A DNA stretch of 64,000 nt, taken from positions 4,892 to 68,891 of the forward strand of contig JBILDC010000012.1 of the NCBI GenBank assembly GCA_044352855.1. Direction: 5' to 3'. This document shows positions 1,575-22,384 of this stretch, piece by piece. Both the position numbers and the translations under genes were made by a program. Every line of letters starts with the position of its first letter. Positions within the stretch are counted from its first letter, which is position 1. The notes under the pieces were generated by a model, which was not told the DNA's origin, searched no databases, and was given only the letters and a program-made list of their open reading frames with translations. Source of the DNA: Sediminibacterium sp. (GTDB lineage Bacteria; Bacteroidota; Bacteroidia; Chitinophagales; Chitinophagaceae).

Positions 1575-1605
1575 TAATTAAAATTTACAATTCATCCATT
1601 TCAAT

Positions 1606-5220: not shown

Positions 5221-5228
5221 AAATAAGT

Positions 5229-6017
5229 ATGAAAAACCTGCTCACAATATTATTTCTTCTAGTAACATTTATTTCTAATGCGCAACGCACTATGTTTGGT
5301 GGGCAGAATAATTACGTGGCGCTGGTGGATCCTACTGTAGTAACTACCGGATCTAACCCTGTTACAAATGGGTTGATTTTATATTTAAATGCAAGCTCAT
5401 ATAGTGGTTCTGGAAATACTTGGTCGGATTTAAGTACACAAAATAACAATGCATCGCTGACGGGTAACCCAACATTTTCTTCTAGCCCAAAAAGCTTTAC
5501 ACTTTCCAGTAATAAATATGCCTTAACCTCAAATTTAATTAGTTCATTTTCGTCAGCAACATTTATTGCTTGGGTGAATCCATCTCAGACACAGGTAAAC
5601 TATACTGGCGTAATATTTAGTAGGGGTCCAAATGCTGGGGCAACAGCGCCAGCAACAGGTATGAACTTTTTTAGCAATAATTCAGTTGGTTATTCCTGGA
5701 ATGATAATGGAAATACATGGAGCTGGGATTCAAGACTTCAAGTACCCTTAAATGCTTGGTCTATGATTGTTGTTAGCATTAATTCATCAAGCGCAACTGC
5801 CTATCTATTGAATGCTAGTGGAATCGTATCGTCAATTAATTCAGTTTCCCATCCCACTGTATCTGGATTAAAATTTTATGTAGGTACTGATCCTTTAGAT
5901 TTTAACACAAGGGCCATGGTTGGTAAAATAGCAACAGCGATGGTATATAGTACTGCATTGTCGCTGGAAGATATTACTTCAATATATAACGCACAAAAAG
6001 CTTCATTTGGTTTATAA
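5229..6017 (+). CDS. Exported LamG/ConA-like lectin domain protein
   Basis: Signal peptide, QRTMFGGQNNY, LILYLNASSYSGSGNTWSDLS...AWSMIVV...ALSLEDITSIYNAQKASFGL. Confidence 0.75.
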   Translation: MKNLLTILFLLVTFISNAQRTMFGGQNNYVALVDPTVVTTGSNPVTNGLILYLNASSYSGSGNTWSDLSTQNNNASLTGNPTFSSSPKSFTLSSNKYALTSNLISSFSSATFIAWVNPSQTQVNYTGVIFSRGPNAGATAPATGMNFFSNNSVGYSWNDNGNTWSWDSRLQVPLNAWSMIVVSINSSSATAYLLNASGIVSSINSVSHPTVSGLKFYVGTDPLDFNTRAMVGKIATAMVYSTALSLEDITSIYNAQKASFGL

Positions 6018-6026
6018 AATATATAA

Positions 6027-6836
6027 ATGAAAAAACTCTTTACCATACTATTTCTTCTTTCTGCATTTATTTCAAATGCGCAGCGTACTATGTTTGGTGG
6101 GCAGAATAATTATGTTGCACCGGTGGTTGTTGCTCCACCCGCTTTAGTAACGGCTGGCCTAGTCTTGAATTTAGATGCAGGCAATGCTTCAAGTTATAAT
6201 GGCACTGGAACTACTTGGTTGGATTTATCTGACAAACGAAACAATGGTACTCTAGTAAATACAATTACACATAATACTGCTAATCCTGGTTATTTGATAT
6301 TTAATGCGAATGGGAATGGTATTGCACAAGGAGGAATGAATCCCTATGTGAGTTTGCCTCAATCAACTGATTTTGATTTTGGAACGGGAGATTTTACTTT
6401 AGAAATGTGGGCCTACACAACAACTGCAAATGCTCATCCCGATTTTATTACTATTAATGCAAATGCATCCACGTACGCAGCAATACGAATAGAATATTGG
6501 AATAACAACTTAATTGTTTTCCATTCCTATGATGGCAATAGTCATGTAACTGGAGCTAGTGTTCCATTTACTTTGAATTCATGGCAGCAAATTGTGGTAT
6601 CCAGAATATCTGGGTCAGTTAAACTATATCTAAATAGCGATATAAAATCGACTTATTCATTACCGGGTTCTTTATTAGCGCAACAAGAAACACGTATAGG
6701 TGATTTAAGAGGTTCACTAGGCTATTATAGCTTTTCAGGAAATATCTCTATTGTTAAGATGTTTAAAAATAAGGGGTTGACTGATACGGAGGTGACAAAT
6801 CATTTTAATCTTACCAAATCACGTTTCGGTTTATAA
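6027..6836 (+). CDS. Exported LamG/ConA-like lectin domain protein (paralog of 5229-6017)
   Basis: Same N-terminus QRTMFGGQNNY; LVLNLDAGNASSYNGTGTTWLDLS, DFTLEMW, WQQIVVSR, LTDTEVTNHFNLTKSRFGL. Confidence 0.8.
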   Translation: MKKLFTILFLLSAFISNAQRTMFGGQNNYVAPVVVAPPALVTAGLVLNLDAGNASSYNGTGTTWLDLSDKRNNGTLVNTITHNTANPGYLIFNANGNGIAQGGMNPYVSLPQSTDFDFGTGDFTLEMWAYTTTANAHPDFITINANASTYAAIRIEYWNNNLIVFHSYDGNSHVTGASVPFTLNSWQQIVVSRISGSVKLYLNSDIKSTYSLPGSLLAQQETRIGDLRGSLGYYSFSGNISIVKMFKNKGLTDTEVTNHFNLTKSRFGL

Positions 6837-6853
6837 ACTGTAAAAATATTTTT

Positions 6854-7669
6854 ATGAAAAAATACATCACACCTATTATTATAATATTCTCTCTTGCTGC
6901 CTGCATTCCTCCGGGAAAGCTTAATGAGTCATTAGATGCTAATACTTTACTTACTAAAAAGTACGATACATTAAATAATAAATTAAATGATACTGTGGCT
7001 AGTTTTAGTGCAAGCCTAAGTAATTTAAAAAGCAGTATTAATAATTTAAAAGATAGTGTAAGCTATTACCGTGGTTTAGTATCAACCACTCCTGCACAAA
7101 CGCAGGGAGATATTTTTTTAAATCAAATGCTTGGCTATTCTTTATTAAGTAAGTCGGAATTGGCTAACATTAAAGCCGCTAATACATCAAATAATGCAAA
7201 CAATGCTTGGCTAGAAAGCTTCAAAGCCGACGTAAAGAAATATGCAGTAGCTGATGTCGATATTAAATTAAATAAAGGTTTTGTATTTGTAGATATTCCA
7301 TCTAATATCATGTTTGCTAGTGGAAGTGCTTCACTCAATAAAAAATCAATTCAAATGTTAGGCGAAATTGCAAAATTATTAAATACACAACCTTCAATGA
7401 ATTTTTTAATTGAAGGCCATACCGATAATAAAACCTTTAAAGCTAATAAGACGAATGATAACTGGACGCTTAGTGTAAACCGAGCAGCAGCAGTAGCAAA
7501 AGTTTTACAAACTAAATACAAGATTGATCCAAAAAGAATGATTGCTGCAGGAAGAAGTGAGTATTTGCCTATGGGTGACAATAATACAAAAGCGGGTCGT
7601 TCAAACAACCGTCGTATACGTATTGTGTTAATGCCTTCGATGAAACAAATAATGAATTTGAATAATTAA
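6854..7669 (+). CDS. OmpA/MotB-family lipoprotein with peptidoglycan-binding domain
   Basis: Lipobox LAAC; coiled-coil N-part; MFASGSA, IEGHTDN, NWTLSVNRA, GRSEYLP, NRRIRIV motifs. Confidence 0.9.
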   Translation: MKKYITPIIIIFSLAACIPPGKLNESLDANTLLTKKYDTLNNKLNDTVASFSASLSNLKSSINNLKDSVSYYRGLVSTTPAQTQGDIFLNQMLGYSLLSKSELANIKAANTSNNANNAWLESFKADVKKYAVADVDIKLNKGFVFVDIPSNIMFASGSASLNKKSIQMLGEIAKLLNTQPSMNFLIEGHTDNKTFKANKTNDNWTLSVNRAAAVAKVLQTKYKIDPKRMIAAGRSEYLPMGDNNTKAGRSNNRRIRIVLMPSMKQIMNLNN

Positions 7670-7681
7670 TAAATTATAAAA

Positions 7682-7891
7682 ATGGAAATTACAATGAGTA
7701 TTGATCCCATAAAATTATCTAGCAGAGAAACTGAAGTTTGTAATTTATTATTAACTGGTAGCAGTACAAATAAAATTGCAGAGTTATTAAATATAAAGTG
7801 CAATACTGTATCTACTATAAAGAAATCTATTTTTTATAAAACAAAGACTAATAACTTAATTGAATTGTATGAGGTGTATAAACAAGTTTAG
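7682..7891 (+). CDS. Stand-alone LuxR-type HTH protein (69 aa)
   Basis: LSSRETEVCNLLLTGSSTNKIAELLNIKCNTVSTIKKSIFYK matches the LuxR HTH pattern. Confidence 0.8.
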   Translation: MEITMSIDPIKLSSRETEVCNLLLTGSSTNKIAELLNIKCNTVSTIKKSIFYKTKTNNLIELYEVYKQV

Positions 7892-8387
7892 TATAATTAT
7901 ACTGGCTACATTTTTATTTCCCTCTACAACAAATGCTCAATCACTTAGCCCATTTACTTTTAATAATGGTGGGGGGTATAGTAATACTTTGGACTGGAGT
8001 GTAGGAGAATCTGTATCTATTGCTCATTTTACTAGTTTTGGATATTCTTTAAATACAGGTGTATTACAACCTAGCACCACTATTACAACATCAATTGAAG
8101 AATATGGCCCTGTGGTATTTGGCAATCAAATTATAATGGGCCCCAACCCCACTAGCAAACTACTTCATATTAAAGCAAGCTTTAATGAACTGGGAGAAAT
8201 TTCATTTCAAATGTTTAATAGTAAATCAAACAATGTTTTAAACTATAATGGCGGAACCATTTTTAGTAGATACGAAAAAGACCTTTACTTAGAAAATTTA
8301 CCCTCTGGAGCCTACTATATGAGAGTCAATTTCAAACCTAGTACTGGAAATACTAAAACGGGTATTTATAAAATTATTAAACTATAA
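7869..8387 (+). CDS. Small T9SS type A sorting-domain (CTD) protein
   Basis: ATG 7869 (track uses TTG 7860); Sec signal; GGG...LDWSVGE...GVLQP N-domain; GPNP...LPSGAYYMRV...YKIIKL CTD. Confidence 0.8.
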   Translation: MRCINKFSIIILATFLFPSTTNAQSLSPFTFNNGGGYSNTLDWSVGESVSIAHFTSFGYSLNTGVLQPSTTITTSIEEYGPVVFGNQIIMGPNPTSKLLHIKASFNELGEISFQMFNSKSNNVLNYNGGTIFSRYEKDLYLENLPSGAYYMRVNFKPSTGNTKTGIYKIIKL

Positions 8388-8429
8388 ATAATTCTTAAAT
8401 AATGTCAAATACATTATTATAAACATTTT

Positions 8430-10634
8430 ATGAAAAAGTATAAGTTATTAATTAAATATTTATGTATGCTATTATTTGTATTATATATAAATAATGCAAA
8501 TGCGCAAACTGGTTTAAATTTTCAGGGTGTAGCAAGAACAAGTAATAATGTAATTATTGTCTCTCAAGACATTAGTTTAAAATTAAGTATTCTTCAAGGA
8601 AGTGCAACGGGTATACCAGAATATATAGAAGTTAGAAAAGTAAAAACCAATGCACAGGGTTTATTTACTGCCGTTATAGGCGATTCAGAAACAACAATTA
8701 CTTTAGGCAACTTTGCAGATATTGATTGGAAGCTTAGTCCTAAGTTTTTGAAAATTGAAATTGACCCTTTTGCTGGAAATAATTTTATTAGTATGGGTAC
8801 CACACAGTTTCAATACGTTGCTTATGCAAAGTTTGCGAACAGTGTGAACGCTGAAAATATATCAGGTGTTGTTCCAGTAGCCCGGGGGGGCACTGGGGCA
8901 AGCAGCCTTTCAATACTTAAATCTAATTTGTCTTTAGATAAAGTAAACAATACAGCAGATACGCTTAAGCCTATTAGTAAATTAATACAATCGGCTTTAG
9001 ATCTTAAATTAAATATAGTGGATAGCACTAAGGCCTATGTTACACCCACGCAGTTGGCAAGCTATAATTTTTCAAGTGGGGTTGCCACTATTGATACCAC
9101 AGGTTTATCCAACAGAATTAATTTTAAACTAAATATTTCCGATACTGCTCTATTATTAAGAAAGGCCGATACATCTACATTATCGAACCGTATTAATTTA
9201 AAATTAAACATTACAGATACATCTACATTATCGAACCGTATTAATTTAAAACTGAATACTTACGACACTTCTACTTTATCAAATAGAATTAATTTAAAAT
9301 TAAATACTACAGATACTTCTAGTTTACTCAGAAAATCTCAAGTGGGAGCTAATAATGGTGCTGCTAGCTTGGATGCAACAGGGAAAGTGCCTTCCGTTCA
9401 AATTCCTGCTATTTCATTTTCATCGGTAGATGTAGTAAATAGTATGGAAAAGATGTTAAGTTTCACAACTGGAACTAACAAAGCAACCGACAGATTAGTA
9501 GGAAGTATTGTTGTTAGATTAGATTCAAGTAAAAACTTTGTTTTATCAAATTTACCTGCGAGTAATAGAGCCAATTGGATTGAACTAGTCAACCCTGACG
9601 CGCCAGTACAAACCGTTAATGGATTAACAGGCTCTGTCGATTTAAGAAAAGCAAACATATCGGACTTAATCTATATAGACAATACTAGTGATAAGGATAA
9701 GCCGGTTTCAGACGCTACAAAAGATTCATTAAGAACGAAATTATATATAACGGACACTTCGCTTTTATTAAAAAAATCTGATACTGCTTTCTTATTACAA
9801 AAAGTCGACACAGCAGCTATTTTAGCTATGTATGCAAAGAAATTTACGAAAGACGTAGTGGTTAATTTTGGAGGTGGTAGTTTAGGGAAATACGCAAATG
9901 GCACTACCATACCTGCAAAAGGAAAAACCTTAGATGAATTTCTTACAGATTTAGTTTCAAATTCAATTCCCCCAACATTTTATCTTCCATCTGTTTCTAT
10001 AGGAGCAAACCCTGGGTTCGGGAATTATGAAATTGGCTATGTACCAGGCTTAGTTACTTTAAATAATACCTATACTGCAAATAATGGTGGTGCTGTGATC
10101 TCGGCTTTATATTATAAAGATGCATCGTCAACACCATTGACTGGGGGGAACTCAATTACACTTGATACCTTAAAAACAACAGTAAGTTTTAAAGTAGTAG
10201 TGAATTATGCCAAGGGAACTGGAACAAAACCCGATAATTTAGGCACCCAATTCCCAAATACTATAAACGCTGGATCTATCTCTGCAACCAATAACTTTAC
10301 TCCTTATTCAAAAAGATATTGGGGTGGAATTACTTCACCGTTTCTTGAAAATCAAACCTATAAAATCGAAGACTTTAATCCAAGTTCTGATCAAAATGGA
10401 AGTAATAAAGGATTTAGTTTCAACTTCACTCCAAACGGTCGTCAATATATTTTTGTTGCATATCTCGCTTCTAATGCTGCAGATATAACTAAAGTAACCT
10501 GGGGTTCTTTAGACTATACTTTTACTAAATCCCTTGTTTGGTTTGAAAACGCAAGAGGGTATAAACAACTTTACAAAGTATTCACATCGACAGAAACTTA
10601 TGATGCTGGAATTACAGGGATAAGTACTCAATAA
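8430..10634 (+). CDS. 734-aa exported fibre protein (FQGVAR N-domain, DTxxL stalk repeats, ASLDATGKVP/PVQTVNG modules, C-terminal domain X)
   Basis: Sec signal; GLNFQGVARTS; DTSTLSNRINLKLN repeats; tail-fibre-like motifs; C-terminal KFTKDVVVNFGGGS...YKVFTS domain shared with the next gene. Confidence 0.75.
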   Translation: MKKYKLLIKYLCMLLFVLYINNANAQTGLNFQGVARTSNNVIIVSQDISLKLSILQGSATGIPEYIEVRKVKTNAQGLFTAVIGDSETTITLGNFADIDWKLSPKFLKIEIDPFAGNNFISMGTTQFQYVAYAKFANSVNAENISGVVPVARGGTGASSLSILKSNLSLDKVNNTADTLKPISKLIQSALDLKLNIVDSTKAYVTPTQLASYNFSSGVATIDTTGLSNRINFKLNISDTALLLRKADTSTLSNRINLKLNITDTSTLSNRINLKLNTYDTSTLSNRINLKLNTTDTSSLLRKSQVGANNGAASLDATGKVPSVQIPAISFSSVDVVNSMEKMLSFTTGTNKATDRLVGSIVVRLDSSKNFVLSNLPASNRANWIELVNPDAPVQTVNGLTGSVDLRKANISDLIYIDNTSDKDKPVSDATKDSLRTKLYITDTSLLLKKSDTAFLLQKVDTAAILAMYAKKFTKDVVVNFGGGSLGKYANGTTIPAKGKTLDEFLTDLVSNSIPPTFYLPSVSIGANPGFGNYEIGYVPGLVTLNNTYTANNGGAVISALYYKDASSTPLTGGNSITLDTLKTTVSFKVVVNYAKGTGTKPDNLGTQFPNTINAGSISATNNFTPYSKRYWGGITSPFLENQTYKIEDFNPSSDQNGSNKGFSFNFTPNGRQYIFVAYLASNAADITKVTWGSLDYTFTKSLVWFENARGYKQLYKVFTSTETYDAGITGISTQ

Positions 10635-10642
10635 AAAATTAC

Positions 10643-13165
10643 ATGAAATATTTAATCATTTTATTTACAGTGATTGCATTTTTTAATTTAAATGCAAATG
10701 CGCAAGTTAAGTTAGGATCCTATGCTGTAAGAAACAGCCCAGGAGATTTATATCCAACCCATTTAGATAGCTTGGGACAAGGTGGTTTTATGAGTTTACA
10801 AACTATAGCAAATAGAAATGCCATTTTGAGTAGACAAAGAAAAGTGGGGATGATGGTGTATGTGCAAGCTAATGATTCATTGTACAAATTAGCTACAGCA
10901 GATTTAAGTAATAATGGTTGGGTAGCTATGGGATTATTAACCCAACAAAAATTAAGCGACTCTTTGAATACAAGGCTAAAAGGAACAGACACTTTAAGCT
11001 TATCAAGTAGAATAGACTCAAAGGCAAATGTGGGTAATATTACGGATGTTAATAATGAGTTGGTTCTAAAATTAAACATCATTGATACTGCTTTTTTATT
11101 GCAAAAAGCAGATACGGCTTTTTTATTACAAAAAAAAGATACGGCTAGTTTATCAAATAGAATAGATTTAAAAGCCAATACAACCACACTTAATAATATA
11201 AATACGGCTATTAGCAATAAACTTATTGCAGATACTGCCTATTTATTGCAAAAGGCAGATACGGCTTTTTTATTGCAGAAAAAAGATACGGCTTTTTTAT
11301 TACAGAAAAACGATACGGCTAATTTATCCAATAGAATAGATTTAAAAGCTAATACAACGACACTTAATAATATAAATACTGCTATAAACAATAAACTTAT
11401 TGCAGACACTACCTATTTATTGCAGAAAAAAGATACGGCTAGTTTATCTAATAGAATCAATTTAAAAGCCAATACAATAGATGTAAATAATTTATATACA
11501 TCTATAAGCAATAAACTTATTACAGATACAACCTATTTATTACAAAAAAAAGATACAGCTAGTTTATCCAATAGAATTAATCTAAAACTAGATGCAAATA
11601 AATCTGGAGTAGCGAACGGGGTTGCAAGTCTAAATGCATTAGGTAAAATACCTACAGATCAAATACCTGCTATTTCATTTTCTTCGGTAAGAATAGTAAA
11701 TACTGAAGCTGAAATGTTAGGATTGAATTCGGCAGTGGTAGGAAGTGTTGCAGTTAGAACCGATGTGAATAAAAGTTTTATATTGGCTGTAAGTGATCCT
11801 ACTATTTTGACCAATTGGACCATGCTTTTAACGCCAGCCCCGCCAGTACAATCAGTGAATGGATATAGCGGAAATGTTTCCTTAACCAAAGCCGATATTG
11901 GTTTAGGTAATGTAGATAATTACAGTTCGGAAGATTTGCCAGTTTCACTTGCTTCAAGAAATGAATTAGCATTAAAATTAAAAATCACAGACACTTCTTA
12001 TTTATTTAAAAAAACAGACACTTCTTTTCTTTTACAAAAAAAGGATACTACAATTTTATCGAATAGAATTAATTTAAAATTGACTACCACAGATACCTCC
12101 TTCTTATTAAAGAAAACAGACACTTCATATTTATTAAAGAAAACAGACAGTTCTTTTCTTTTACAAAAAAAGGATACTACAAGTTTATCCAATAGGATTA
12201 ATAAAAAATTAAATATAACTGACACTTCGTTCTTATTAAAGAAGACAGATACTTCCTTCTTATTAAAGAAAACTGATACATCATTTTTATTAAAGAAATC
12301 AGATACCACCTATTTATTACAAAAAGTAGATACTACAGCTATATTGTCGATGTATGCAAAAAAATTCACCAAAGATGTGGTCGTTAATTTTGGTGGTGGT
12401 AGTTTTGGTAAATATGCAAATGGGGAAACCGTACCTGCAAAAGGAAAAACTTTAGATGAATTTTTGTACGATGTACTAACTAAATCAGTTCCTCCAAACT
12501 ATGTTGCACCTAGAGTTTCAATAGGTGCTAGTCCAGCATTTGGTGCTTATGAAATTGGGTACAATCCTGGATTGGTTTCCTTATCCAATAGTTATACAAA
12601 AAATGATGGTGGTAATGTGACTTTGACTATATATAATAAAGGTGGAGCCTCTTTGGGAACTGGCGTGAATACCAATACACCAGGTACAATAACAAGTACT
12701 GTTAGTTATAATGTTACAGTTAATTATGGTGCTGGAAATGTGAAAACCGACAATTTAGGCAATCCATATCCTACTGGTCAAATCACTGCTGGATCTACTT
12801 CTTCTGCTTCAGGTGCCTATACGACTTATTCAAAAAGATATTATGGTGGCACAAGTGTCGCATTCACTGAGTCAAATACTTATAATTATGCTTCATTAAG
12901 TCAAGCACTAGGTTCAGATCCAGATGGACATATTAATTCTAAGACTGTAAGTCTTACGCCAACAGGTACCCAAAATGTATTTTTTGCTTATCCCGCAGGT
13001 TTATCTGATCTCAGTTCTATTTTATACAATGGGAATGAATCTATTGATTCATTTACTAAATCAATAATATTAATAACAAATGCGCAAGGTTATACACAAT
13101 CCTATAAAGTGTATGTGTCTAAAGAAGTGTATAGCTCAACGTTAAATAATCTTAACATTAAATAA
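10643..13165 (+). CDS. 840-aa exported fibre protein (N-domain Y, DTAFLLQK repeats, C-terminal domain X)
   Basis: Sec signal; LYPTHLDSLGQGGFMSL...RQRKVGMMVYVQANDSLYKL; two blocks of DTxxLLxK repeats; C-domain homologous to that of 8430-10634. Confidence 0.75.
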   Translation: MKYLIILFTVIAFFNLNANAQVKLGSYAVRNSPGDLYPTHLDSLGQGGFMSLQTIANRNAILSRQRKVGMMVYVQANDSLYKLATADLSNNGWVAMGLLTQQKLSDSLNTRLKGTDTLSLSSRIDSKANVGNITDVNNELVLKLNIIDTAFLLQKADTAFLLQKKDTASLSNRIDLKANTTTLNNINTAISNKLIADTAYLLQKADTAFLLQKKDTAFLLQKNDTANLSNRIDLKANTTTLNNINTAINNKLIADTTYLLQKKDTASLSNRINLKANTIDVNNLYTSISNKLITDTTYLLQKKDTASLSNRINLKLDANKSGVANGVASLNALGKIPTDQIPAISFSSVRIVNTEAEMLGLNSAVVGSVAVRTDVNKSFILAVSDPTILTNWTMLLTPAPPVQSVNGYSGNVSLTKADIGLGNVDNYSSEDLPVSLASRNELALKLKITDTSYLFKKTDTSFLLQKKDTTILSNRINLKLTTTDTSFLLKKTDTSYLLKKTDSSFLLQKKDTTSLSNRINKKLNITDTSFLLKKTDTSFLLKKTDTSFLLKKSDTTYLLQKVDTTAILSMYAKKFTKDVVVNFGGGSFGKYANGETVPAKGKTLDEFLYDVLTKSVPPNYVAPRVSIGASPAFGAYEIGYNPGLVSLSNSYTKNDGGNVTLTIYNKGGASLGTGVNTNTPGTITSTVSYNVTVNYGAGNVKTDNLGNPYPTGQITAGSTSSASGAYTTYSKRYYGGTSVAFTESNTYNYASLSQALGSDPDGHINSKTVSLTPTGTQNVFFAYPAGLSDLSSILYNGNESIDSFTKSIILITNAQGYTQSYKVYVSKEVYSSTLNNLNIK
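11080..12330 (+). repeat. Coding DT(A/T/S)(F/Y)LL(Q/K)K and DTASLSNRI repeats, in two blocks
   Basis: Visible in DNA (gatacggcttttttattacagaaaaa; gacacttcxttxttattaaagaa) and in the protein. Confidence 0.85.
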
Positions 13166-13173
13166 ATATTACA

Positions 13174-16100
13174 ATGAAGTATAAAATATTTTTTTTTATA
13201 ATAATCGCTTTTTTTACTACAAAACTACATGCACAAATTAAATTAAGCTCCTATGCAACTACACAAGACGCTGGTTCATTGTATCCAACCCATTTAGATA
13301 GTTTGGGTCAAGGCGGTTTCATGAGTTTATCAAGTATAGCGTCAAGAGATGCAATAATAACAAGGAGAAGAAAACAAGGTATGTTGGTATATGTGCAAGC
13401 CAATGATTCTTTATATAAATTAACCACTGCCAATTTAAGCAACACAGGATGGGTCGCTGTTGGTCTATTAACATCACAACAATTAAGAAATTTTGTCAAT
13501 AGCTCAGTGAATGGATTAACCAACACTAATTTATCAGGAACTGCAGGCATCACTGATGCTAACTTAGGCACTATATCAACAGCAGGTAAAGTAAGCAATA
13601 GCGCCACTTCTGCAACTGCATCCAATACTTCTTATACAATTGTAGCAAGAGATGATATAGGCAATTTTTCTGCAAATACTATAACAGCCAATTTAAATGG
13701 TACCGCTTTAATAGCAACCAATATAGAAGGCGGTGCCTCAGGATCTATGCCTTATCAATCATCCAATAACACAACAGGCTTATTAGCAGCAGGAACCAAT
13801 GGACAATATTTACAACTAGCAAATGGTTTACCAAGTTGGCAGACATTATCTACAACAGTAAGTGCATCTAATATTACAGGAACAGTTGCTTTAGTAAATG
13901 GAGGAACGGGACAAACAACCATTGCAGGCATACAATCTGCATTAGGCTTGTCTGGAAATAAGATTGCTTTAGGAAGTTTATCGGGTACTTTTTCTCAAAG
14001 TGCAAATGCAGTAGCAATAGGATCTAATGCAGGAAATACGAGTCAAGGTGCTCAATCTGTAGCAATTGGATTTCTTGCTGGCAAAGAAAATCAAGGTAAT
14101 TACACAATTGCCATAGGAAGTGCAGCAGGAGTTACAAGACAATTTGAAGGTTCTGTTGCAATAGGATATGGTTCTGGAAATTTAAATCAAGGAACTAACG
14201 CTGTTGCTTTAGGGCCAGGATCGGGTTCAAGTAATCAAAGTGATTATGCTTTAGCTTTAGGATATAATGCAGGGTATAGTAATCAGGGTGCTAATTCAGT
14301 TGCAATAGGAAGTAATGCAGGAAAAACTACGCAGTCAACAAACTCAGTGGCACTAGGTGCTTATGCTACTTCGGGATATACTAATTCGACAGCCATAGGT
14401 TATGGTGCAGTAACTGCTGCAGCAAATACCATTCAATTAGGTGCAGATGGCTCAAATGTAGATGGAGTTACAACTACAGCCATCGCCAATGTTAAAACTT
14501 CTGGAACATTAACTTTAGGTACTGTTACTTATCCTAGAGCACATGGAACGAATGGTCAATTATTAACGACTAGTGGTAGTGGAACATTAACATGGACTAG
14601 TAATGTTGTTCCGTATACCGGTGCAATTAAAAGTGTTAATCTTGGATATTACGATTTAATGGTTTCTGGTATCACGGTTGGTAGAGGACCTGGAACAGGT
14701 AATTTCGGAAATACCACTTTTGGAGACTCTGCGCTTGCTTATAATAATACAGGATCTAGAAACAATGCATTTGGAAATAACGCACTTCAAAATAATACTT
14801 CAGGTAGTGATAATATTGCCATGGGTACTTCGGCACTTATGCAAAATACAACAGCATCCTCTAATATCGCTATAGGATCACAAGCACTTGGTGCAAATTC
14901 ACCTGGTTCTTACAATGTAGCTATAGGATCTTTTGCACTTGCAAAAGACAGCACAGGTTATAATAATACAGCCATTGGTTATGCATCACTTAGGGCTAAT
15001 ACCACTGGTTTTAATAATACTGCTACTGGTATGTTTTCACTTATCAGTGATACAAGTGGATCTTATAATACTGCCAATGGTTTTCAATCACTCAACTATA
15101 ATACAAATGGTTCTCATAACACTGCTAGTGGAGTTCAATCTTTATATTTTAATTCAATAGGAAATTATAATTCAGCCTTTGGTAATGAGTCGCAATATTT
15201 CAATAAGGGATCTTATAATACATCTATTGGCAGAAAAGCTTTATTAAATAATAGCACAGGCAATCATAATACAGCAGTAGGAAATAAAGCAGATGTCTTA
15301 TCAGATAATTTAGAAAATGCAACTGCTATTGGCGATAGTGCGATTGTGACAGCAAGTAATACCATACAGCTTGGAAATATCAATGTAACCAATGTTAAAA
15401 CTAGTGGAACTGTAACTGCAAATGCAGTTACCTATCCCAATAGTCATGGTACTAGTGGACAATTATTAACGACTACAGGAAGCGGAACTTTAACATGGAC
15501 TACTTCAACAATTACTTTGGTGCCATACACAGGAGCAATTAAAGCTGTCAATCTTGGGGCTTATGATTTAACAGTAAATGGGTTAACGGTTGGAAAAGGC
15601 GTTGGTGCATTTGCATCTAATACTGTTATTGGTAATGGACTATCAAATACAAATAATACTGGCACTAATAATACCGCAATTGGTTTTAATTCGCTTAAGT
15701 CAAATACAACTGGAGTATCCAATACTGCTAATGGAGTATCAGCTCTATTTTCAAATACGACTGGTAATTTCAATACTGCTTATGGTATAAGTGCGCTTTA
15801 TCTTAATGAGAGTGGATATTACAATACAGCAATTGGCATGACATCTTTATTGACGAATACAACAGGCAACCATAATACTGCAATTGGATATAAGGCAAAT
15901 GTAGGTTTCGGTAATTTAGAAAACGCAACAGCCATTGGAGATAGTGCGATTGTTACAGCAAGCAATACCATTCAGCTTGGAAACATCAATGTGATCAATG
16001 TTAAAACCAGTGGAACGCTCACTGCAGGTGCTATTACTTATCCTAAAACACATGGCACCAATGGTCAGTTTTTAACTACAACAGGGACTGGTACTTTATC

Positions 16101-18618
16101 ATGGACAACACTTAATGATGCAACCACCACTATAAAAGGTATTATTCAATTAGCAGGAGATCTAGGAGGAACAGCAACATCACCCACAGTCAATACTGTA
16201 GGAGGAGTGAACTCATCTACCATATCAACTTTTGATACAAGAATAGCATCCAATACAAATAGTATTACTTCTTTAACTACAGCTTTAAGTTCAAATACAA
16301 ATAGCATTACTACATTAACTAGCACTGTAAATACAAATACGGCAAGTATAACTTCACTAAGTACAAATATTTTAGCTTCAACATTAACCGGCACAGTTGC
16401 AGTTGCCAATGGAGGAACAGGTCAAACAAGTATTGTAGGGTTACAAACTGCATTAGGATTATTAGGAACTCAAGTGGCTATAGGAGCAAATGCAGGCACG
16501 AGTACACAAAGTGCCTATTCAGTTGCAATAGGAAATGCTGCAGGACAAATAAGTCAAAACACGAATTCAGTTGCAATAGGCAATGGTGCTGGATACAATA
16601 CCCAAGGAAATGGTTCAACATCTTCTGGTGGAGCTGTTGCAATTGGTGCGAATGCAGGTAACAAATTACAAGCAGTTGGTGCAGTAGCCATTGGAGCCAG
16701 TGCTGGTCAAAATGATCAAAGTGCCTATGCAGTAGCAATAGGGTATGGTTCGGGTGTAACAAGTCAAGCAGGTTATACTGTAGCCATTGGACAAAACGCA
16801 GGAGCAACGAGTCAAGAAATAGGTGCGGTTTCTATGGGACCCAATGCTGGTTATAATGCACAAAAAAATCGTGCTGTTGCAATAGGTGATAATGCAGGAT
16901 ATGATTTGCAAGCACAAAGTGCAGTTGCAGTGGGTAATAAAGCAGGAAGAGAAAATCAACAGGAACTTGCAGTTGCGGTAGGATATGAATCTGGAAGAGT
17001 ATCCCAAGGACAAAATGCAGTTGCTGTGGGAAATCAAGCAGGAAAAACAAGTCAAGGAATTTATGCAGTTGCAGTTGGAGTGAATGCAGGAAACAATACA
17101 CAAGGCAATTATACAGTTGCAATAGGTAATAGTGCAGGTAATGACAGACAAAAAATTGGAGCTATTGCAATAGGTAATAGTGCAGGACAAATTACCCAAG
17201 ATGAAGATGCTATTGCGATTGGGAAAAGCGCAGGATATACTAGTCAAGGTACTTTTTCTGTTGCGATAGGAACTAATGCTGGAAATTCTGGTCAAGAGAG
17301 TCAGTCCATTGCCATTGGAAACAAAGCTGGAAACTCTAGTCAAAAATTTAACTCGGTTGCCATTGGAGCCATGGCAGCAGAAACTTCACAAGGAGATAAT
17401 GCTATTGCAGTTGGATACACTGCAGGAAACAATACACAAAGCAATCATACCGTTGCAATAGGCAATGGTGCGGGTAAAAATACTCAAAAAGAATTCGGCA
17501 TTGCAATAGGTTATGATGCTGGACAAAATACACAGAGTACTAAATCAATAGCTGTTGGAGCTAACGCTGGTCAAACAACGCAAGGGGAAAGTTCAGTTGC
17601 CATAGGAGATCAAGCAGGGAAAACTAGTCAAGGTAATTACACAGTTGCATTAGGAATTAATGCAGGAAATAATACGCAAGGCAATCATGCTGTTGCAATA
17701 GGCAATGGTGCGGGTAAAACTACTCAAAAAGAATTCGGAATTGCAATAGGATATGATGCTGGACAAAATACGCAGAGTACTAATGCGATAGCGATTGGAG
17801 CTAACGCAGGTTTGACAACTCAAGGAGAAAATTCAGTTTCTATTGGTTATGAATCTGGAAAATCAAGGCAAAAAGATTTTTCAGTTGCTATTGGACCCTA
17901 TGCTGGATATTTAGATCAAGCCCGCGCATCAGTTGCAGTAGGTCCAAATGCGGGTAAAGAAAATCAAGGTGTTAGTGCAGTGGCAGTTGGAGATCAAGCA
18001 GCTCAATTTACTCAAAGTAATTATGCTGTTGCAATAGGAGTTAACGCAGGTCAAAATAGTCAAGGTTTGAATGCGGTTGCCATTGGTAGCGGAGCAGGAC
18101 AAACCAATCAAGGTACTAATTCAGTAGCATTAGGTGTTGCTTCAAGTAGTACAGGTAGCACGGCAACTGCATTAGGCGCAATAGCTTCTGCAGCCCATTC
18201 GAATTCAACTGCCATTGGATATCAAGCAGCTACGACTGGAGATAATACTATTCAATTAGGAAATAGTAGTGTAACAAATGTTAACACAAGTGCTGCTATA
18301 AATGCAAAATCATTTTATTTAAATAGTTCAAATTCAATCACAGCAGGGAATACTACTACAATTGATTTATCTAACAATAATATTTTTAAAATAAGTCTAG
18401 GTACAGATATAGCTACACTTAGTTTAAATAATGCTAAACCAGGCACCTATATTATTGAAATTATTCAAGGGGGCACCTATAATGTATCTTTCCCAAGTGC
18501 CTGGAGATGGGCCTCTGGTTTAATTCCTATTATTACACCCACTGCAAATAAAATTGATATAGTCACGCTTGTATATGATGGATCAACCTATTTTGCATCT
18601 ACAGTTCAAAATTTTTAA
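13174..18618 (+). CDS. 1814-aa exported fibre/adhesin (N-domain Y, YadA-head-like 16-aa repeats, 17-aa NTTG repeats, C-terminal domain Z)
   Basis: N-terminus homologous to 10643-13165; QxxxAVAIGxxAGxxx repeats; ends TIDLSNNNIFKISL...IDIVTLVYDGSTYFASTVQNF. Confidence 0.8.
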   Translation: MKYKIFFFIIIAFFTTKLHAQIKLSSYATTQDAGSLYPTHLDSLGQGGFMSLSSIASRDAIITRRRKQGMLVYVQANDSLYKLTTANLSNTGWVAVGLLTSQQLRNFVNSSVNGLTNTNLSGTAGITDANLGTISTAGKVSNSATSATASNTSYTIVARDDIGNFSANTITANLNGTALIATNIEGGASGSMPYQSSNNTTGLLAAGTNGQYLQLANGLPSWQTLSTTVSASNITGTVALVNGGTGQTTIAGIQSALGLSGNKIALGSLSGTFSQSANAVAIGSNAGNTSQGAQSVAIGFLAGKENQGNYTIAIGSAAGVTRQFEGSVAIGYGSGNLNQGTNAVALGPGSGSSNQSDYALALGYNAGYSNQGANSVAIGSNAGKTTQSTNSVALGAYATSGYTNSTAIGYGAVTAAANTIQLGADGSNVDGVTTTAIANVKTSGTLTLGTVTYPRAHGTNGQLLTTSGSGTLTWTSNVVPYTGAIKSVNLGYYDLMVSGITVGRGPGTGNFGNTTFGDSALAYNNTGSRNNAFGNNALQNNTSGSDNIAMGTSALMQNTTASSNIAIGSQALGANSPGSYNVAIGSFALAKDSTGYNNTAIGYASLRANTTGFNNTATGMFSLISDTSGSYNTANGFQSLNYNTNGSHNTASGVQSLYFNSIGNYNSAFGNESQYFNKGSYNTSIGRKALLNNSTGNHNTAVGNKADVLSDNLENATAIGDSAIVTASNTIQLGNINVTNVKTSGTVTANAVTYPNSHGTSGQLLTTTGSGTLTWTTSTITLVPYTGAIKAVNLGAYDLTVNGLTVGKGVGAFASNTVIGNGLSNTNNTGTNNTAIGFNSLKSNTTGVSNTANGVSALFSNTTGNFNTAYGISALYLNESGYYNTAIGMTSLLTNTTGNHNTAIGYKANVGFGNLENATAIGDSAIVTASNTIQLGNINVINVKTSGTLTAGAITYPKTHGTNGQFLTTTGTGTLSWTTLNDATTTIKGIIQLAGDLGGTATSPTVNTVGGVNSSTISTFDTRIASNTNSITSLTTALSSNTNSITTLTSTVNTNTASITSLSTNILASTLTGTVAVANGGTGQTSIVGLQTALGLLGTQVAIGANAGTSTQSAYSVAIGNAAGQISQNTNSVAIGNGAGYNTQGNGSTSSGGAVAIGANAGNKLQAVGAVAIGASAGQNDQSAYAVAIGYGSGVTSQAGYTVAIGQNAGATSQEIGAVSMGPNAGYNAQKNRAVAIGDNAGYDLQAQSAVAVGNKAGRENQQELAVAVGYESGRVSQGQNAVAVGNQAGKTSQGIYAVAVGVNAGNNTQGNYTVAIGNSAGNDRQKIGAIAIGNSAGQITQDEDAIAIGKSAGYTSQGTFSVAIGTNAGNSGQESQSIAIGNKAGNSSQKFNSVAIGAMAAETSQGDNAIAVGYTAGNNTQSNHTVAIGNGAGKNTQKEFGIAIGYDAGQNTQSTKSIAVGANAGQTTQGESSVAIGDQAGKTSQGNYTVALGINAGNNTQGNHAVAIGNGAGKTTQKEFGIAIGYDAGQNTQSTNAIAIGANAGLTTQGENSVSIGYESGKSRQKDFSVAIGPYAGYLDQARASVAVGPNAGKENQGVSAVAVGDQAAQFTQSNYAVAIGVNAGQNSQGLNAVAIGSGAGQTNQGTNSVALGVASSSTGSTATALGAIASAAHSNSTAIGYQAATTGDNTIQLGNSSVTNVNTSAAINAKSFYLNSSNSITAGNTTTIDLSNNNIFKISLGTDIATLSLNNAKPGTYIIEIIQGGTYNVSFPSAWRWASGLIPIITPTANKIDIVTLVYDGSTYFASTVQNF
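13996..14380 (+). repeat. Block of 8 coding 16-aa (48-nt) QxxxAVAIGxxAGxxx repeats
   Basis: Counted by hand in the translation of 13174-18618. Confidence 0.8.
16507..18150 (+). repeat. Block of ~34 coding 16-aa (48-nt) repeats
   Basis: Hand count of QxxxxVAIGxxAGxxx units; near-identical DNA at 17461 and 17701 (240-nt offset = 5 units). Confidence 0.85.
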
Positions 18619-18619
18619 G

Positions 18620-20179
18620 ATGAAATTTTATTTAGTTACACTAAGTTTTTTTTTAATAGGCATAACACATGCGCAAGTAATGCCACAATCATTTATTACT
18701 AATAATAATGCGTATCCAATTAGTACAAGTGGCGCTAATGTAGCATTTAATTTTGAATCCGCTATTTCTACCGTGGTAGCAAATACTTATCCAGCAATAA
18801 AAAGTGATTTTTCATTCAATTTTAGTAACACAACACCATATACGATACAATTTTTTTTTAATAAAGTAGTTAGTAACAATACCAGATTTGGGTTTATTGG
18901 TTTCACAACTGCAACAAATGGATTTTCTTATGACCCTGCGTGCTTTTTATTTTATGAATTTCAGAATGGTGTCATGAGAAATTTTGTAAAAAATGAATAT
19001 TTAGGCGGAAATATTAATGTAAATAGTTTTGTTATTGGACAAACTTATCAAATTACTACAACTTATAATGGTAGTCAATGGAAACACTATGTGAATGGAG
19101 TTTTATTTTCTATAGTCAACAACAATAGTACATGGAGTGGTACTGGAAATTTAATGTTAGGCAATATTGGAGGCTATACCAATATAATTTTAGACGAAGT
19201 AAGATTTTGGGATAGAGCTTTAACGCAAGATGAAATTTCAAATAATTATAAAAAGCCTTTAATAGGAAATGAAAACGGATTAAAACTGTATTATAATTTT
19301 AATAATCAAGGTAATCCATCAGAAAACAATTCAAATATTCAATACCTAAAAGATCTAACATCCAATAATAATAAAGGGACATTTAATAATTTGTCTTTAT
19401 CAGGCACACAAAATAATTTTATACCTAGTATAGCATATTACGATAGTATCGCAATTTCTTTGGATGCAAATGATTTAGATAGTTATCCTGGCACTGGGAA
19501 TGCTTCCTCGCTCATTGCTGGAGGCAATGCTTGGCATGATTTAAGTACTAAGCAAAGTTTATTTTTTTCTAATAATTTGAACTATAATACAAATGCGGCT
19601 CCAATACTTAATGCAGATGGAGGGCGTTCTTTATATATAAAAAATATGTATGGGCGTTCAAATTTAAATACGGGCATTTCAGGTAGTTCTCCAAAATCAA
19701 TTGAAGCTTGGGTTAAATTTAATTCTTTAGACAATATTTCAGTTGCTTCAATTGGTAATTTGTCTGACTATAATCAATTTGAACTGGCAGCTAACAACAA
19801 TAAATTAATTCTAAATATTGGATCAAATTTTTCAAGTAATCTACTTATAAAAAGCACAAGTACATTGGTAATTAATAGATGGTACCATGTTGTAATTACT
19901 TGGTCTCGTAGTTTTGCAAAAACGGCAAATTATAAATACGGTGCTTTTACCATGTATATTAATGGCATAAAAGATAATGACTTCTTTAATAGAGACGGAG
20001 AATACAATCATAGTATTGATATAACATTAGTTAATTCCACAAGTACCCCAGTTTATATAGGAACAAGTCTAAGGCCTTTTAATGGTAAATTAGGAATATT
20101 AAAAGTGTACCGAAAAGAATTACTTGAAACAGAAGTTTTAAATAGGTTTAATGCCACAAAAAGCAGGTTTGGGTATTAA
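18620..20179 (+). CDS. Exported tandem LamG/ConA-like domain protein
   Basis: ATG 18620 just after the upstream stop (track start 18569 overlaps it); signal peptide; LDEVRFWDRALTQDEI; second domain ISLDANDLDSYPGTG...RWYHVVITW...EVLNRFNATKSRFGY. Confidence 0.8.
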   Translation: MKFYLVTLSFFLIGITHAQVMPQSFITNNNAYPISTSGANVAFNFESAISTVVANTYPAIKSDFSFNFSNTTPYTIQFFFNKVVSNNTRFGFIGFTTATNGFSYDPACFLFYEFQNGVMRNFVKNEYLGGNINVNSFVIGQTYQITTTYNGSQWKHYVNGVLFSIVNNNSTWSGTGNLMLGNIGGYTNIILDEVRFWDRALTQDEISNNYKKPLIGNENGLKLYYNFNNQGNPSENNSNIQYLKDLTSNNNKGTFNNLSLSGTQNNFIPSIAYYDSIAISLDANDLDSYPGTGNASSLIAGGNAWHDLSTKQSLFFSNNLNYNTNAAPILNADGGRSLYIKNMYGRSNLNTGISGSSPKSIEAWVKFNSLDNISVASIGNLSDYNQFELAANNNKLILNIGSNFSSNLLIKSTSTLVINRWYHVVITWSRSFAKTANYKYGAFTMYINGIKDNDFFNRDGEYNHSIDITLVNSTSTPVYIGTSLRPFNGKLGILKVYRKELLETEVLNRFNATKSRFGY

Positions 20180-20399: not shown

Positions 20400-20693
20400 A
20401 TGAAAAATAAGTTTGTAACATTCGCTTTATTGTCATTTTTATGTTTAAGTATGGCTTCTTGCTATACTGTATCCTATGCAGTCGGTACTGGTTCTCAGAC
20501 TGGTGAGACTATTATGGAAAAAAATCATTATTTGGTTGCTGGCTTAGCGCCTATTAAAACAGCCAATCCTACTCAAATGGCTGGAGATGCTAAAAACTAT
20601 CAAGTAACTATTTCACATACTGTAGTTGATGGCCTAATAAATATTTTAACAGGTGGGTTATATACGCCTACTACAACTATTGTTAAGAAGTAG
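20400..20693 (+). CDS. Bor/Iss-family small lipoprotein
   Basis: Lipobox MASC; HYLVAGL and HTVVDGLINILTGGLYTPTT resemble the Bor family. Confidence 0.65.
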   Translation: MKNKFVTFALLSFLCLSMASCYTVSYAVGTGSQTGETIMEKNHYLVAGLAPIKTANPTQMAGDAKNYQVTISHTVVDGLINILTGGLYTPTTTIVKK

Positions 20694-20720: not shown

Positions 20721-20759
20721 TAAGAAAAAGGAGCTTATAATTTAAGTTTCTTTTTCTTA
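20721..20759. terminator. Intrinsic terminator hairpin
   Basis: taagaaaaaggagctta-taatt-taagtttctttttctta: 17-bp stem with G-U pairs and A/T tracts on both sides. Confidence 0.75.
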
Positions 20760-20869: not shown

Positions 20870-22384
20870 ATGAAAAAAGTATTTCTTTTCTTTTTTATTT
20901 TTTTTTCATCACTACATGTATATGCACAAACTGGAATATTTTTCCAAGCAATTGCAAGAGATAATACTTCCAATCCTGCTAAAGACAGAAAATTATATGT
21001 ACAAACTAATATTATACAATCAACAACAACGGGCACTATAGTTTTAACAGAAGAGCATGAAACCTTTACCGATGCATTTGGCATATTTAGTATAATGGTA
21101 GGCAGCGGAAGAAGAGTAGGAGGTACCGTTACTAGTTTAAGTACTATTGATTGGGCTAAAGGCCCTTACTATTTAAATATTAAAATTGTTATTACACCAG
21201 TGGGAGTAGGTGCTGGCTGGGATTATACAAAAGAGTGGGTAGATATAGGAACCACTATTTTTGGAGCTGTACCATTTGCATTGTATTCAGCTAGTACAGC
21301 AAAAATTGATGAAAAATTAAATTCTTCAGATACAACTAAAATGTTAAACCCTTATGCCAAAGTGCAAGCGGTTCAAACATTATCAACTATCATTGATACA
21401 AAATTAGCGACCAGGGATACTTCAGCTATGTTAGCGCCTTATGCTAAATTGTCTTACAGCTTAGATAGTATTTATTTAAAAAAACAAATAGCTAGTTTAT
21501 TAGGCGCATTGGATACTATAAAATACACCAAACAAACTTATACCGATTCTGCATTACTTTCAAAAATGAACATTTTTGATAAAAGCATATATGCAAAACA
21601 AATTTATACTGATTCTGCTTTGCTTACAAAATTATCAACTACAGGAAGTGCAGCAAGTTTAACTAATTTTCCAATATTCAATCAAAATACAACAGGTAAT
21701 GCTGCTACTGCAGACAATATTACGGCAACTAATAATACAACCTTAACTAGTTTATCTAATTTAAATACAGTCGGGACTATTACAACTGGTGTATGGAGTG
21801 CTACTACTATAGATATAGCACATGGAGGAACTGGTTTAACTAAAGCTGGCTTAGATGGGCAGGTCTTGAGTACAGCATCTGATGGAAGTCTTCAATGGGT
21901 TAGCTTAACTTCATCGACTACTACACATAGAATTGGTGAGAGATTCGGAGGAGGCATTGTATTTTATGTATATGATAATGGTAAACATGGCTTAATAGCA
22001 GCAACTTCTGATCAAGCTTCTTTTGTTAGATGGGGAAATACTAATGCTGTTAATGCTGTAAGAGATGGAATTAATGCAGGTATGGCCAATACTGAAAGAA
22101 TTATTTTAGTACAAGGTTCCGCTGGAGATTATGCAGCACAGATTGCTGCAAATTACCAAGGTGGTGGATTTGGTGACTGGTATTTACCCTCTAAATATGA
22201 ACTAAATCTGCTTTTTCAAAAAAAAGCCTTTGTTGGATTGTTTCCAGGTTTCGGTTATTGGAGTTCTAATGAGTCTGGCAATAGTAATGCATGGGGGCAA
22301 GATTTCGCTGATATATGGGGGACTCAATTTTATACTAATAGAACTCAAAAACATAGTTCTGTCCGCGCTATTAGATCGTTTTAA
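20870..22384 (+). CDS. 504-aa exported FQAIARD-domain fibre protein with DUF1566 (Lcl-like) C-terminus
   Basis: N-domain closely homologous to 1606-5220; C-terminal HRIGERFGGGIVFYV...GDWYLPSKYEL...YWSS...VRAIRSF. Confidence 0.8.
   Translation: MKKVFLFFFIFFSSLHVYAQTGIFFQAIARDNTSNPAKDRKLYVQTNIIQSTTTGTIVLTEEHETFTDAFGIFSIMVGSGRRVGGTVTSLSTIDWAKGPYYLNIKIVITPVGVGAGWDYTKEWVDIGTTIFGAVPFALYSASTAKIDEKLNSSDTTKMLNPYAKVQAVQTLSTIIDTKLATRDTSAMLAPYAKLSYSLDSIYLKKQIASLLGALDTIKYTKQTYTDSALLSKMNIFDKSIYAKQIYTDSALLTKLSTTGSAASLTNFPIFNQNTTGNAATADNITATNNTTLTSLSNLNTVGTITTGVWSATTIDIAHGGTGLTKAGLDGQVLSTASDGSLQWVSLTSSTTTHRIGERFGGGIVFYVYDNGKHGLIAATSDQASFVRWGNTNAVNAVRDGINAGMANTERIILVQGSAGDYAAQIAANYQGGGFGDWYLPSKYELNLLFQKKAFVGLFPGFGYWSSNESGNSNAWGQDFADIWGTQFYTNRTQKHSSVRAIRSF

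Follow-up and report, generated by a model that had tools for sequence, protein, structure and literature searches.

A Sediminibacterium sp. contig (JBILDC010000012.1 of GenBank assembly GCA_044352855.1) carries three consecutive genes for fibre-like proteins of 734, 840 and 1814 residues, which we analysed within a stretch of 64,000 nucleotides (contig positions 4,892 to 68,891; hereafter the window). From comparison with cellular and phage relatives, we consider it probable that the three proteins together form one surface fibre, with the 734-residue protein proximal, the 840-residue protein in the middle and the 1814-residue protein distal, each exported separately and coupled to the next by a joint inherited from phage fibres. 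The joint would be formed by a C-terminal domain, X, of one protein and an N-terminal domain, Y, of the next.

Three genes linked by X-Y junctions

A first-pass annotation of the window, made from the sequence alone, had described a base, an extender and a terminal protein with the layout N..X / Y..X / Y..Z, in which each gene starting with Y directly follows one ending in X and a LamG gene begins 1 nt after the last stop codon. The open reading frames (ORFs), their shared domains and their spacing agree with this description. E-values for X and Y are from our own hidden Markov models (HMMs) unless stated otherwise.

8430..10634, + strand: base subunit, 734 residues; signal peptide, N (FQGVAR) domain at residues 26-131, repeat shaft, module K at residues 306-438, X at residues 470-734
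9837..10631, + strand: X of the base, putative socket that would take Y of the 840-residue protein; E 3.6e-100; the paralogous X was modelled
10643..13165, + strand: extender, 840 residues; signal peptide, Y at residues 20-98, nonapeptide-repeat shaft, K at residues 322-446, X at residues 573-840
10700..10936, + strand: Y of the extender, putative plug that would fit X of the base; E 8e-37; PHROG phrog_23630, E 2e-7
12359..13162, + strand: X of the extender, putative socket that would take Y of the 1814-residue protein; E 1.3e-111; sequence used for AlphaFold2 (AF2)
13174..18618, + strand: terminal subunit, 1814 residues; signal peptide, Y at residues 20-98, long YadA-like/tail-spike-like repeat body, Z at residues 1701-1814; PHROG tail spike phrog_4636, E 2.7e-55
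13231..13467, + strand: Y of the terminal subunit; E 6.5e-38
18274..18615, + strand: Z, C-terminal domain of the terminal subunit, by the Z HMM
18620..20179, + strand: secreted double-LamG protein, 519 residues, candidate distal lectin or partner; two Laminin_G_3 matches, Pfam E 2.6e-25

By BLASTP, the X domains of the base and the extender are ~49% identical over ~265 residues (whole-protein E 3e-123), and the Y regions (residues ~20-98) of the extender and the terminal protein are 60% identical over 117 residues (E 2e-38), with 73% identity across the core domain. Both X-Y gaps are 8 nt long, and the terminal gene stops (TAA, 18616-18618) 1 nt before the ATG of the LamG gene at 18620. A Sec-type signal peptide ending in NAQ or HAQ is present at the N-terminus of all four proteins, which indicates that they are cell proteins exported and assembled outside the cytoplasm and not virion parts. 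The window itself is cellular DNA (~33% G+C) with genes for cytochrome c, YceI, DUF5777 and OmpA and two tRNA genes, and its nearest genomes are freshwater Chitinophagales and Sediminibacterium genomes assembled from metagenomes. Both X-Y junctions and the Z-LamG junction are spanned, with zero differences, by independent contigs of four lake-water metagenome runs, so misassembly of the repetitive shafts did not create this arrangement. No Pfam model matched N, X, Y or Z, and a promoter and terminator scan of the region gave no signal better than shuffled sequence.

We then scanned every ORF of related loci with HMMs for N, X, Y, Z, LamG, an Lcl_C-like domain, module K and a small protein, T, that is described below. 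The loci were drawn from GTDB genomes, metagenomes and look-ups of encoding contigs, and the metagenome scan contributed three of them. Their layouts were as follows.

Window, L007: N..X / Y..X / Y..Z
L001, L010, L012, L013, L014, L017: N..X / Y..Z
L015, L021: N..X / Y..X / Y.. (contig cut)
L016: N..X / Y..X / Y..X / Y..
L009, L011, L020: ..X / Y.. (contig cut)
L002 (distant lineage, ~33% identity, different N-terminus): ..X / Y..X (C-terminal half) / Y..

Twenty-one X-Y junctions supported by the Y HMM were found in 15 non-redundant Chitinophagales/Sediminibacterium loci, and a 22nd in L002 behind the C-terminal half of X. Wherever DNA downstream of an X-ending gene was visible in the 15 loci, the next gene encoded a signal peptide followed by Y, without exception, and each Y gene was in turn preceded by an X gene. 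The gaps ranged from -1 to +13 nt, with overlapping TAATG or ATGA at several junctions. Domain N was confined to the first gene of each set and absent from proteins that start with Y. The number of Y..X genes differed between genomes, as the first-pass annotation had anticipated: there was no extender in six loci (L001, L010, L012, L013, L014 and L017), one in four (the window, L007, L015 and L021) and two in L016. L020, in which the Y gene is cut by the contig end, was left out of these counts.

Loci with and without an extender were collinear. When the extender is missing, the terminal protein is longer and includes K, whereas in loci with an extender K is found in the extender and not in the terminal protein. 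The terminal protein of L013 (1993 residues) aligns over residues 1-766 with the extender of L007 (54% identity) and over residues 560-1993 with the terminal protein of L007 (44% identity). The alignments and the placement of K together indicate that extender plus terminal protein equals a single long terminal protein into which one X-Y joint has been inserted.

X and Y in phages

A scan of IMG/VR with the Y alignment gave 33 loci. In 32 of them Y was located at residues 3-17 of its protein without a signal peptide; these proteins ranged from 120 to 2069 residues, some with a Y..Z layout. The gene directly upstream of Y ended in the C-terminal immunoglobulin (Ig)-like subdomain of X (XC) in 22 of the 32 loci by iterated HMM and in two more at a relaxed threshold, with gaps of -4 to +13 nt. 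As XC occurs in 27 of the ~275 genes of the phage loci (9.8%), its placement before Y is strongly enriched, both by locus (P = 1.6e-15 for the 22 HMM-supported cases) and by lineage (11 of 15, P = 7.7e-9, with Y lineages clustered at 70% identity and the fusion contig described next left out). Co-occurrence and abutment of X and Y in other genomes, without which the first-pass annotation would have given up its model, were therefore seen both at the 21 junctions of the 15 cellular loci and in these 11 of 15 phage lineages.

In one phage contig the two domains are joined in a single chain. The ORF at 3235-7551 of L046 (1438 residues) contains the order X, linker, Y twice, with XC at residues 381-485 followed by Y at 503-564 and XC at 789-892 followed by Y at 911-972; the linker is ~17 residues long. 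This is a Rosetta-stone fusion of X and Y, and because X is internal there and the direct neighbour of Y, it is not a tip in this protein. In another contig (L029, IMG/VR 3300044971_001435, 1380-8813, high G+C), an X-ending gene of 232 residues comes right after portal, capsid-protease and head-decoration genes, and the Y gene paired with it encodes a collagen-like "tail fiber protein" that ends in Z. The fibre attached through this joint may belong to the head or neck and not to the baseplate.

X was located at the extreme C-terminus in 53 of 53 word-index matches. The family comprises 3340 clusters (50% identity) at E <= 1e-3 and 495 at E <= 1e-30, and X was C-terminal in essentially all of the 147 representatives listed out of the 3340 clusters. 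Among the architectures of these representatives were N..X, Y..X and many phage-like proteins without a signal peptide, and many short phage proteins consist of a small N-terminal domain and X only. Y nearly always implies X upstream, and X is the broader family. AF2 modelled the X of the extender as all-beta (predicted local distance difference test score, pLDDT, 90), with two Ig-like beta-sandwiches that come after a short N-terminal element. Its fold matches in BFVD were phage tail, tail-fibre and "hyaluronidase" proteins (E down to 1e-19). A Foldseek search against the PDB returned nothing significant (antibody Fabs only, E >= 3e-3), and PDB sequence searches with X and Y gave no genuine match; a PPR match was rejected as a repeat artefact. 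Among isolated phages, matches came only from Salisaeta icosahedral phage 1 (SSIP-1) and Faecalibacterium phage FP_Brigit, and both are unannotated at the match. A Y..X protein of 640 residues from the representative library (P0061) carries the last Ig-like subdomain of X three times in tandem, which indicates that this subdomain acts as an independent, repeatable unit.

For Y, the PHROG scan showed that its core matches phrog_23630 and phrog_24134 at N-terminal profile positions, and a word-indexed search returned seven fragments only. Two candidate relationships were dropped. Homology between Y and the internal knob of module K (SSVRIVNTEAEML..VGSVAVRTD..W) was unsupported (hhalign E 0.097). 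By eye, Y-like N-termini also follow X in gp57 of SSIP-1 and in the Firmicutes-type phage contig L005/L023; they reached hhalign E 0.014, were negative with a broadened HMM and were not counted.

Several other phage loci vary the arrangement. In L051 (5953-7741), which we group with L053, three consecutive short Y genes (186, 205 and 193 residues) come after one X-ending gene and one intervening gene; they could be several plugs, or alternative ones, for a single socket. The tail-less, membrane-containing SSIP-1 (L025, NC_017983, 4953-7961) encodes ORF56 (266 residues), which is nearly a bare X domain, and 3 nt further on the structural protein gp57, which begins with several repeated small knob motifs. 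The two may form a spike assembly that uses the same socket, and the relationship of the gp57 knobs to Y lacks statistical support. The gene before Y carries Z and does not end in X in L044 (5439-5924), and ends in a LamG-like domain in L048 (5104-5889). It seems that phages share one set of fibre parts that includes X, Y, Z and LamG.

The shafts of the window proteins are also phage-like. PHROG scans link them to minor tail, tail fibre and tail spike families of phages. They consist of tandem repeats of 27 nt and 48 nt (9168-9321, 11084-11587 and 11978-12333) that encode DTSFLLKKx and LSNRINLKLN units. In a lake population (run X6), one 48-nt unit is missing from the 734-residue gene (joint 9167->9216), so shaft length is variable in nature. 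Module K (9345-9743 in the base gene, 11606-11980 in the extender gene) has the pattern ..LDxxGKIPxxQIP.., a small knob, and ..VNGxxGxVxLxKxDIGLGNVDNTSDxDKPVS, and matches phage "minor tail protein" PHROGs with E down to 2e-20. The terminal gene contains a 225-residue antisense ORF (16666-17343, - strand) inside its Ala/Gly-rich repeats that is almost certainly spurious. The rise in G+C to 0.40 at 16000-18000 is due to repeat composition.

Z was matched by its HMM in eight cellular loci, at the C-terminus every time, and also at the C-terminus of the phage Y..Z proteins of L027, L029 and L033; a Z-like stretch inside the 1204-residue protein of the window was dropped because the Z HMM did not confirm it. 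A double-LamG gene begins 1 nt after the Y..Z gene in all eight loci in which that gene is complete. LamG genes also follow the 1204-residue fibre gene, which ends in Lcl_C, so LamG is not specific to Z, and a specific contact between the two is only a possibility. A very long protein, in which ~10 Fn3-like repeats are combined with a Fibrobacter-type paralogous domain, is encoded by the gene upstream of the locus in L007 (3-4007) and L013 (3-3986). In L013 it includes a fibre shaft with module K; in L007 it has a fused C-terminal LamG, which shows that LamG is able to be a covalent C-terminal domain. Given this fusion and the LamG gene next to Y..Z in 8/8 loci, a role of the LamG protein as distal lectin at the fibre tip is plausible.

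Order of the segments and competing readings

The joints within one genome have diverged from each other. Paralogues inside a genome are 31-49% identical in X and 52-73% identical in Y, and orthologous joints across genomes are 80-96% identical. The terminal Y of L010 is 89% identical to the extender Y of L007 (the X domains upstream of both are 90% identical) and just 62% identical to the terminal Y of L007. On these identities, Y tracks its upstream X and not its own protein body. One joint type is found between base and extender in L015 and between two extenders in L016, and identity between X domains correlates with identity between the Y domains downstream of them (r = 0.79 for the two matrices). 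The first-pass annotation had suggested that the extender could self-polymerise and so set fibre length. That suggestion found no support: with joints this divergent within a genome and this conserved between orthologues, self-polymerisation is unlikely, and the pattern fits specific, ordered joints.

The segmented fibre would then be assembled as follows. The segments, whose signal peptides are observed, would be exported one by one through Sec, and each is presumably trimeric, as judged from phage and mosaic adhesive trimer (MAT) relatives. The base would hold the fibre to the cell via N, which is weakly related to the N domain of Bdellovibrio MAT fibres, and its X, with two Ig-like domains, would be the socket that receives the N-terminal Y of the next gene's product. 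The extender would repeat this X-to-Y docking once more, and the terminal subunit would close the chain, with the co-translated, secreted LamG protein probably at its distal end. The X-Y pair would be an old phage joint that can be covalent, within one chain, or non-covalent, between the products of two adjacent, translationally coupled genes. The diverged joints suggest that each X may recognise its own Y, which would give a defined order and length and not open-ended polymerisation. Physical binding of X to Y, the trimer state, the surface location, the export route and the specificity of the joints are what we infer from the comparisons above. The first-pass claim that X binds Y has gained comparative support from adjacency, fusion and collinearity. 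Its further claim, that gene order mirrors assembly order, is plausible from adjacency, the variable number of extenders, the L046 fusion and collinearity, and the parallel it drew with the long tail fibre of phage T4 stands as an analogy only, as scans found no homology to gp34-37.

Several observations weigh against a segmented fibre with X-Y joints. The cellular loci all come from one order, so their conserved synteny is in part shared descent. Adjacent DNA is also inherited together, and the covariation of X with the downstream Y can be put down to linkage as well and is not independent proof of binding specificity. AF2 was run on monomers, its model of Y from nine sequences reached a pLDDT of only 39.6, and the analysis yielded no direct or predicted X-Y contact. 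Two phage lineages have Y genes and no X-ending gene that we could find in the locus, two further lineages have one intervening gene between X and Y, and the X-ending genes of L005 and SSIP-1 precede genes without a detectable N-terminal Y. The fibre proteins have no C-terminal sorting domain (CTD) of the type IX secretion system (T9SS) and no known route across the outer membrane; the neighbouring T is the sole carrier of such a domain. Our search found no RNA runs covering the region and no transcript or proteome data.

We weighed three other explanations. The plugs could be interchangeable, so that the base carries either the 840- or the 1814-residue protein, or one for each X of a trimer, which would give mixed or branched fibres; a self-polymerising extender is one form of this idea. 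The 73% identity of the two Y cores in the window speaks for it, as do the three consecutive short Y genes downstream of one X-ending gene in L051, and since the model of X is a tandem Ig module for each chain, a trimer would offer three copies. We nevertheless regard interchangeability as unlikely, because the low identity of X paralogues within a genome (31-49%) and the high identity of joint orthologues (80-96%) are the pattern expected of orthogonal joints, and the collinearity of extender plus terminal protein with single long terminal proteins fits a linear order. Still less likely, in our judgement, are three independent fibres, in which the Ig-like X would serve as adhesive tip, Y would be a second kind of cell-proximal domain and the order X then Y would be a matter of co-inherited tandem genes. 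X is indeed always C-terminal, Ig-like modules are common as adhesin tips, many short phage proteins pair a small N-terminal domain with X, some phage X-ending genes precede genes without Y, and each protein has its own signal peptide. However, the Y proteins lack the N anchor that every other fibre of these loci has, and adjacency held without exception in 15 loci despite varying gene number. X is strongly enriched before Y in unrelated phage lineages, it is fused to Y in mid-chain twice in L046, where it cannot be a tip, and the split and fused forms are collinear.

The third explanation makes X a C-terminal chaperone for folding or trimerisation, similar to S74 domains, that is removed after assembly and has no part in a joint. 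The constant position of X at the extreme C-terminus of cellular proteins would suit such a role, and the related MAT family has a subfamily with C-terminal S74 chaperone-protease domains (PMC10769870). We find this scarcely credible: the fibre proteins have no Pfam match to Peptidase_S74, and X matches no other Pfam model either; X is modelled as two Ig-like sandwiches without a PDB match to S74 structures; and it is internal in L046 and triplicated in P0061. A segmented fibre held together by X-Y joints remains the reading that we prefer.

Neighbouring genes, related systems and significance

The gene for T lies directly upstream of the base gene.

7860..8387, + strand: small protein T, 175 residues; signal peptide, ~70-residue domain, T9SS C-terminal sorting domain; Pfam Por_Secre_tail, E 8.7e-6

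A homologue of T was found 4-42 nt upstream of the N-starting fibre gene in 14 loci. Homologues are present in the window (7860-8387 and 1044-1574) and in L001, L007, L009, L010, L013-L019 and L021, with two copies in L014 and L019. We did not detect a T9SS CTD (Por_Secre_tail or type B) in the 734-, 840- or 1814-residue proteins or in the LamG protein; only the products of 7860-8387 and 1044-1574 carry one. Purely by inference, T could be a surface anchor for the N domain or an adaptor for T9SS export.

The N domain also occurs in the 1204- and 504-residue proteins of the window, so that all three proteins have a signal peptide and then a conserved domain of ~110 residues. Against NCBIfam NF053851 (Bdello_MAT_N), the N domain scored E 0.0095 (15.7 bits) in the 734-residue protein and 1.4e-4 (21.7 bits) in the 504-residue protein, with a family cut-off of 60 bits. 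The 1204-residue gene belongs to a paralogous cluster at 1044-7669 that consists of a T9SS-CTD gene (1044-1574), the fibre gene (1606-5220), two single-LamG genes and a gene for an OmpA-family lipoprotein. The fibre protein is a single chain with an FQGVAR-type N domain, YadA-like repeats and an Lcl_C-like end, and the mature N-termini of the two single-LamG proteins share the peptide QRTMFGGQNNYVA. This cluster corresponds to the three-gene fibre in a MAT-like, single-chain form. On the other side of the locus, a Bor-like lipoprotein gene (20400-20693; Pfam Lambda_Bor, E 6e-22) is followed by a hairpin with a 17-bp stem (20721-20759) and by the 504-residue fibre gene (20870-22384), which has an N domain and an Lcl_C end and is kept downstream of the locus in L007, L010, L012, L013, L014 and L017.

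By descent and setting, the closest known system appears to be the MAT fibres of Bdellovibrio bacteriovorus, even though the N match is sub-threshold. MAT proteins are phage-like, surface-located single chains with a signal peptide (Caulton et al, 2024; PMC10769870), and the proposed partner of their conserved N domain is a surface element of unknown identity (PMC10769870). Like the fibres described here, they are cell-encoded and resemble phage tail fibres, with a Sec signal peptide, a long shaft and variable distal domains, and their conserved, beta-rich N domain of ~110-130 residues after the signal peptide may have its counterpart in the N domain found here; the 1204- and 504-residue proteins of the window show the same single-chain layout. 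Unlike a MAT fibre, which is one polypeptide, the proposed three-gene fibre spreads N, shaft and Z over three genes, and the 840- and 1814-residue proteins lack N. The N-domain scores are far under the family cut-off (15.7-21.7 vs 60 bits), the organisms are non-predatory lake bacteria of the Bacteroidota, there is no S74 domain, and T9SS-CTD and LamG genes lie alongside.

The long tail fibre of phage T4 is built head to tail from gp34, gp35, gp36 and gp37, the products of adjacent genes whose order is proximal to distal (PMC5537660, PMC3004832), and in T2-type phages a small separate gene after the distal subunit (gp38) can supply the tip adhesin (PMC5537660, PMC3004832, PMC3157838). The likeness lies in adjacent genes, in a gene order that equals the proposed assembly order and in the small separate gene after the distal subunit; head-to-tail joining itself would be a further parallel. 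T4 differs in its monomeric hinge gp35, its other junction domains and its assembly in the cytoplasm on a virion, whereas here each segment has a signal peptide. No match to gp34-38 was detected in Pfam, NCBIfam or PHROG scans, and the PHROG matches were to minor tail, tail fibre and tail spike proteins of other phages.

True homologues of both joint domains, in the same order and with the same spacing, are found in the phage X/Y pairs (IMG/VR L027-L059; phrog_23630, phrog_24134), which include Y..Z proteins in L027 and L029. These phage proteins differ in having no signal peptides and in being much shorter, with X partners of ~230-390 residues, and we found no experimental study of them in the literature. 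The likeness to the YadA family is at the level of repeats only: the body of the 1814-residue protein consists of YadA-head-like "NSVAIG..A" repeats (NCBIfam E 0.0017, 17 bits vs a cut-off of 750). It has no C-terminal beta-barrel translocator and no Pfam YadA_anchor match, and its C-terminus is Z. Neither the literature nor the databases yielded a description of an X-Y joint or, in Bacteroidota, of a segmented surface fibre.

A more general proposition, which we hold in even balance, is that X-Y is a portable, non-covalent fibre connector of phage tail-fibre or head-fibre origin, where it would couple a small X-ending adaptor with a Y-starting fibre, and that Chitinophagales took it over to build multi-segment adhesive fibres outside the cytoplasm from pieces exported one by one through Sec, in which orthogonal joints would fix the order of segments and gain or loss of Y..X cassettes would tune length over evolution. 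If X and Y do dock, long bacterial surface fibres would be assembled after export from several trimeric segments. Multi-segment assembly is known for T4 fibres, which are made in the cytoplasm, and not for cell-surface adhesins. Docking would also give a function to the large unannotated X family, which has no Pfam model and no solved structure, and to its unannotated partner Y, and would explain the recurring two-gene pattern of phages in which a small X-ending protein is followed by a Y-starting fibre. In laboratory phage or protein engineering, orthogonal X-Y pairs could be used as natural joints with which to exchange receptor-binding modules from one fibre to another. As to how phage-like fibres may cross the outer membrane, a concrete candidate is the T9SS-CTD gene, which in every case comes directly before the base subunit.

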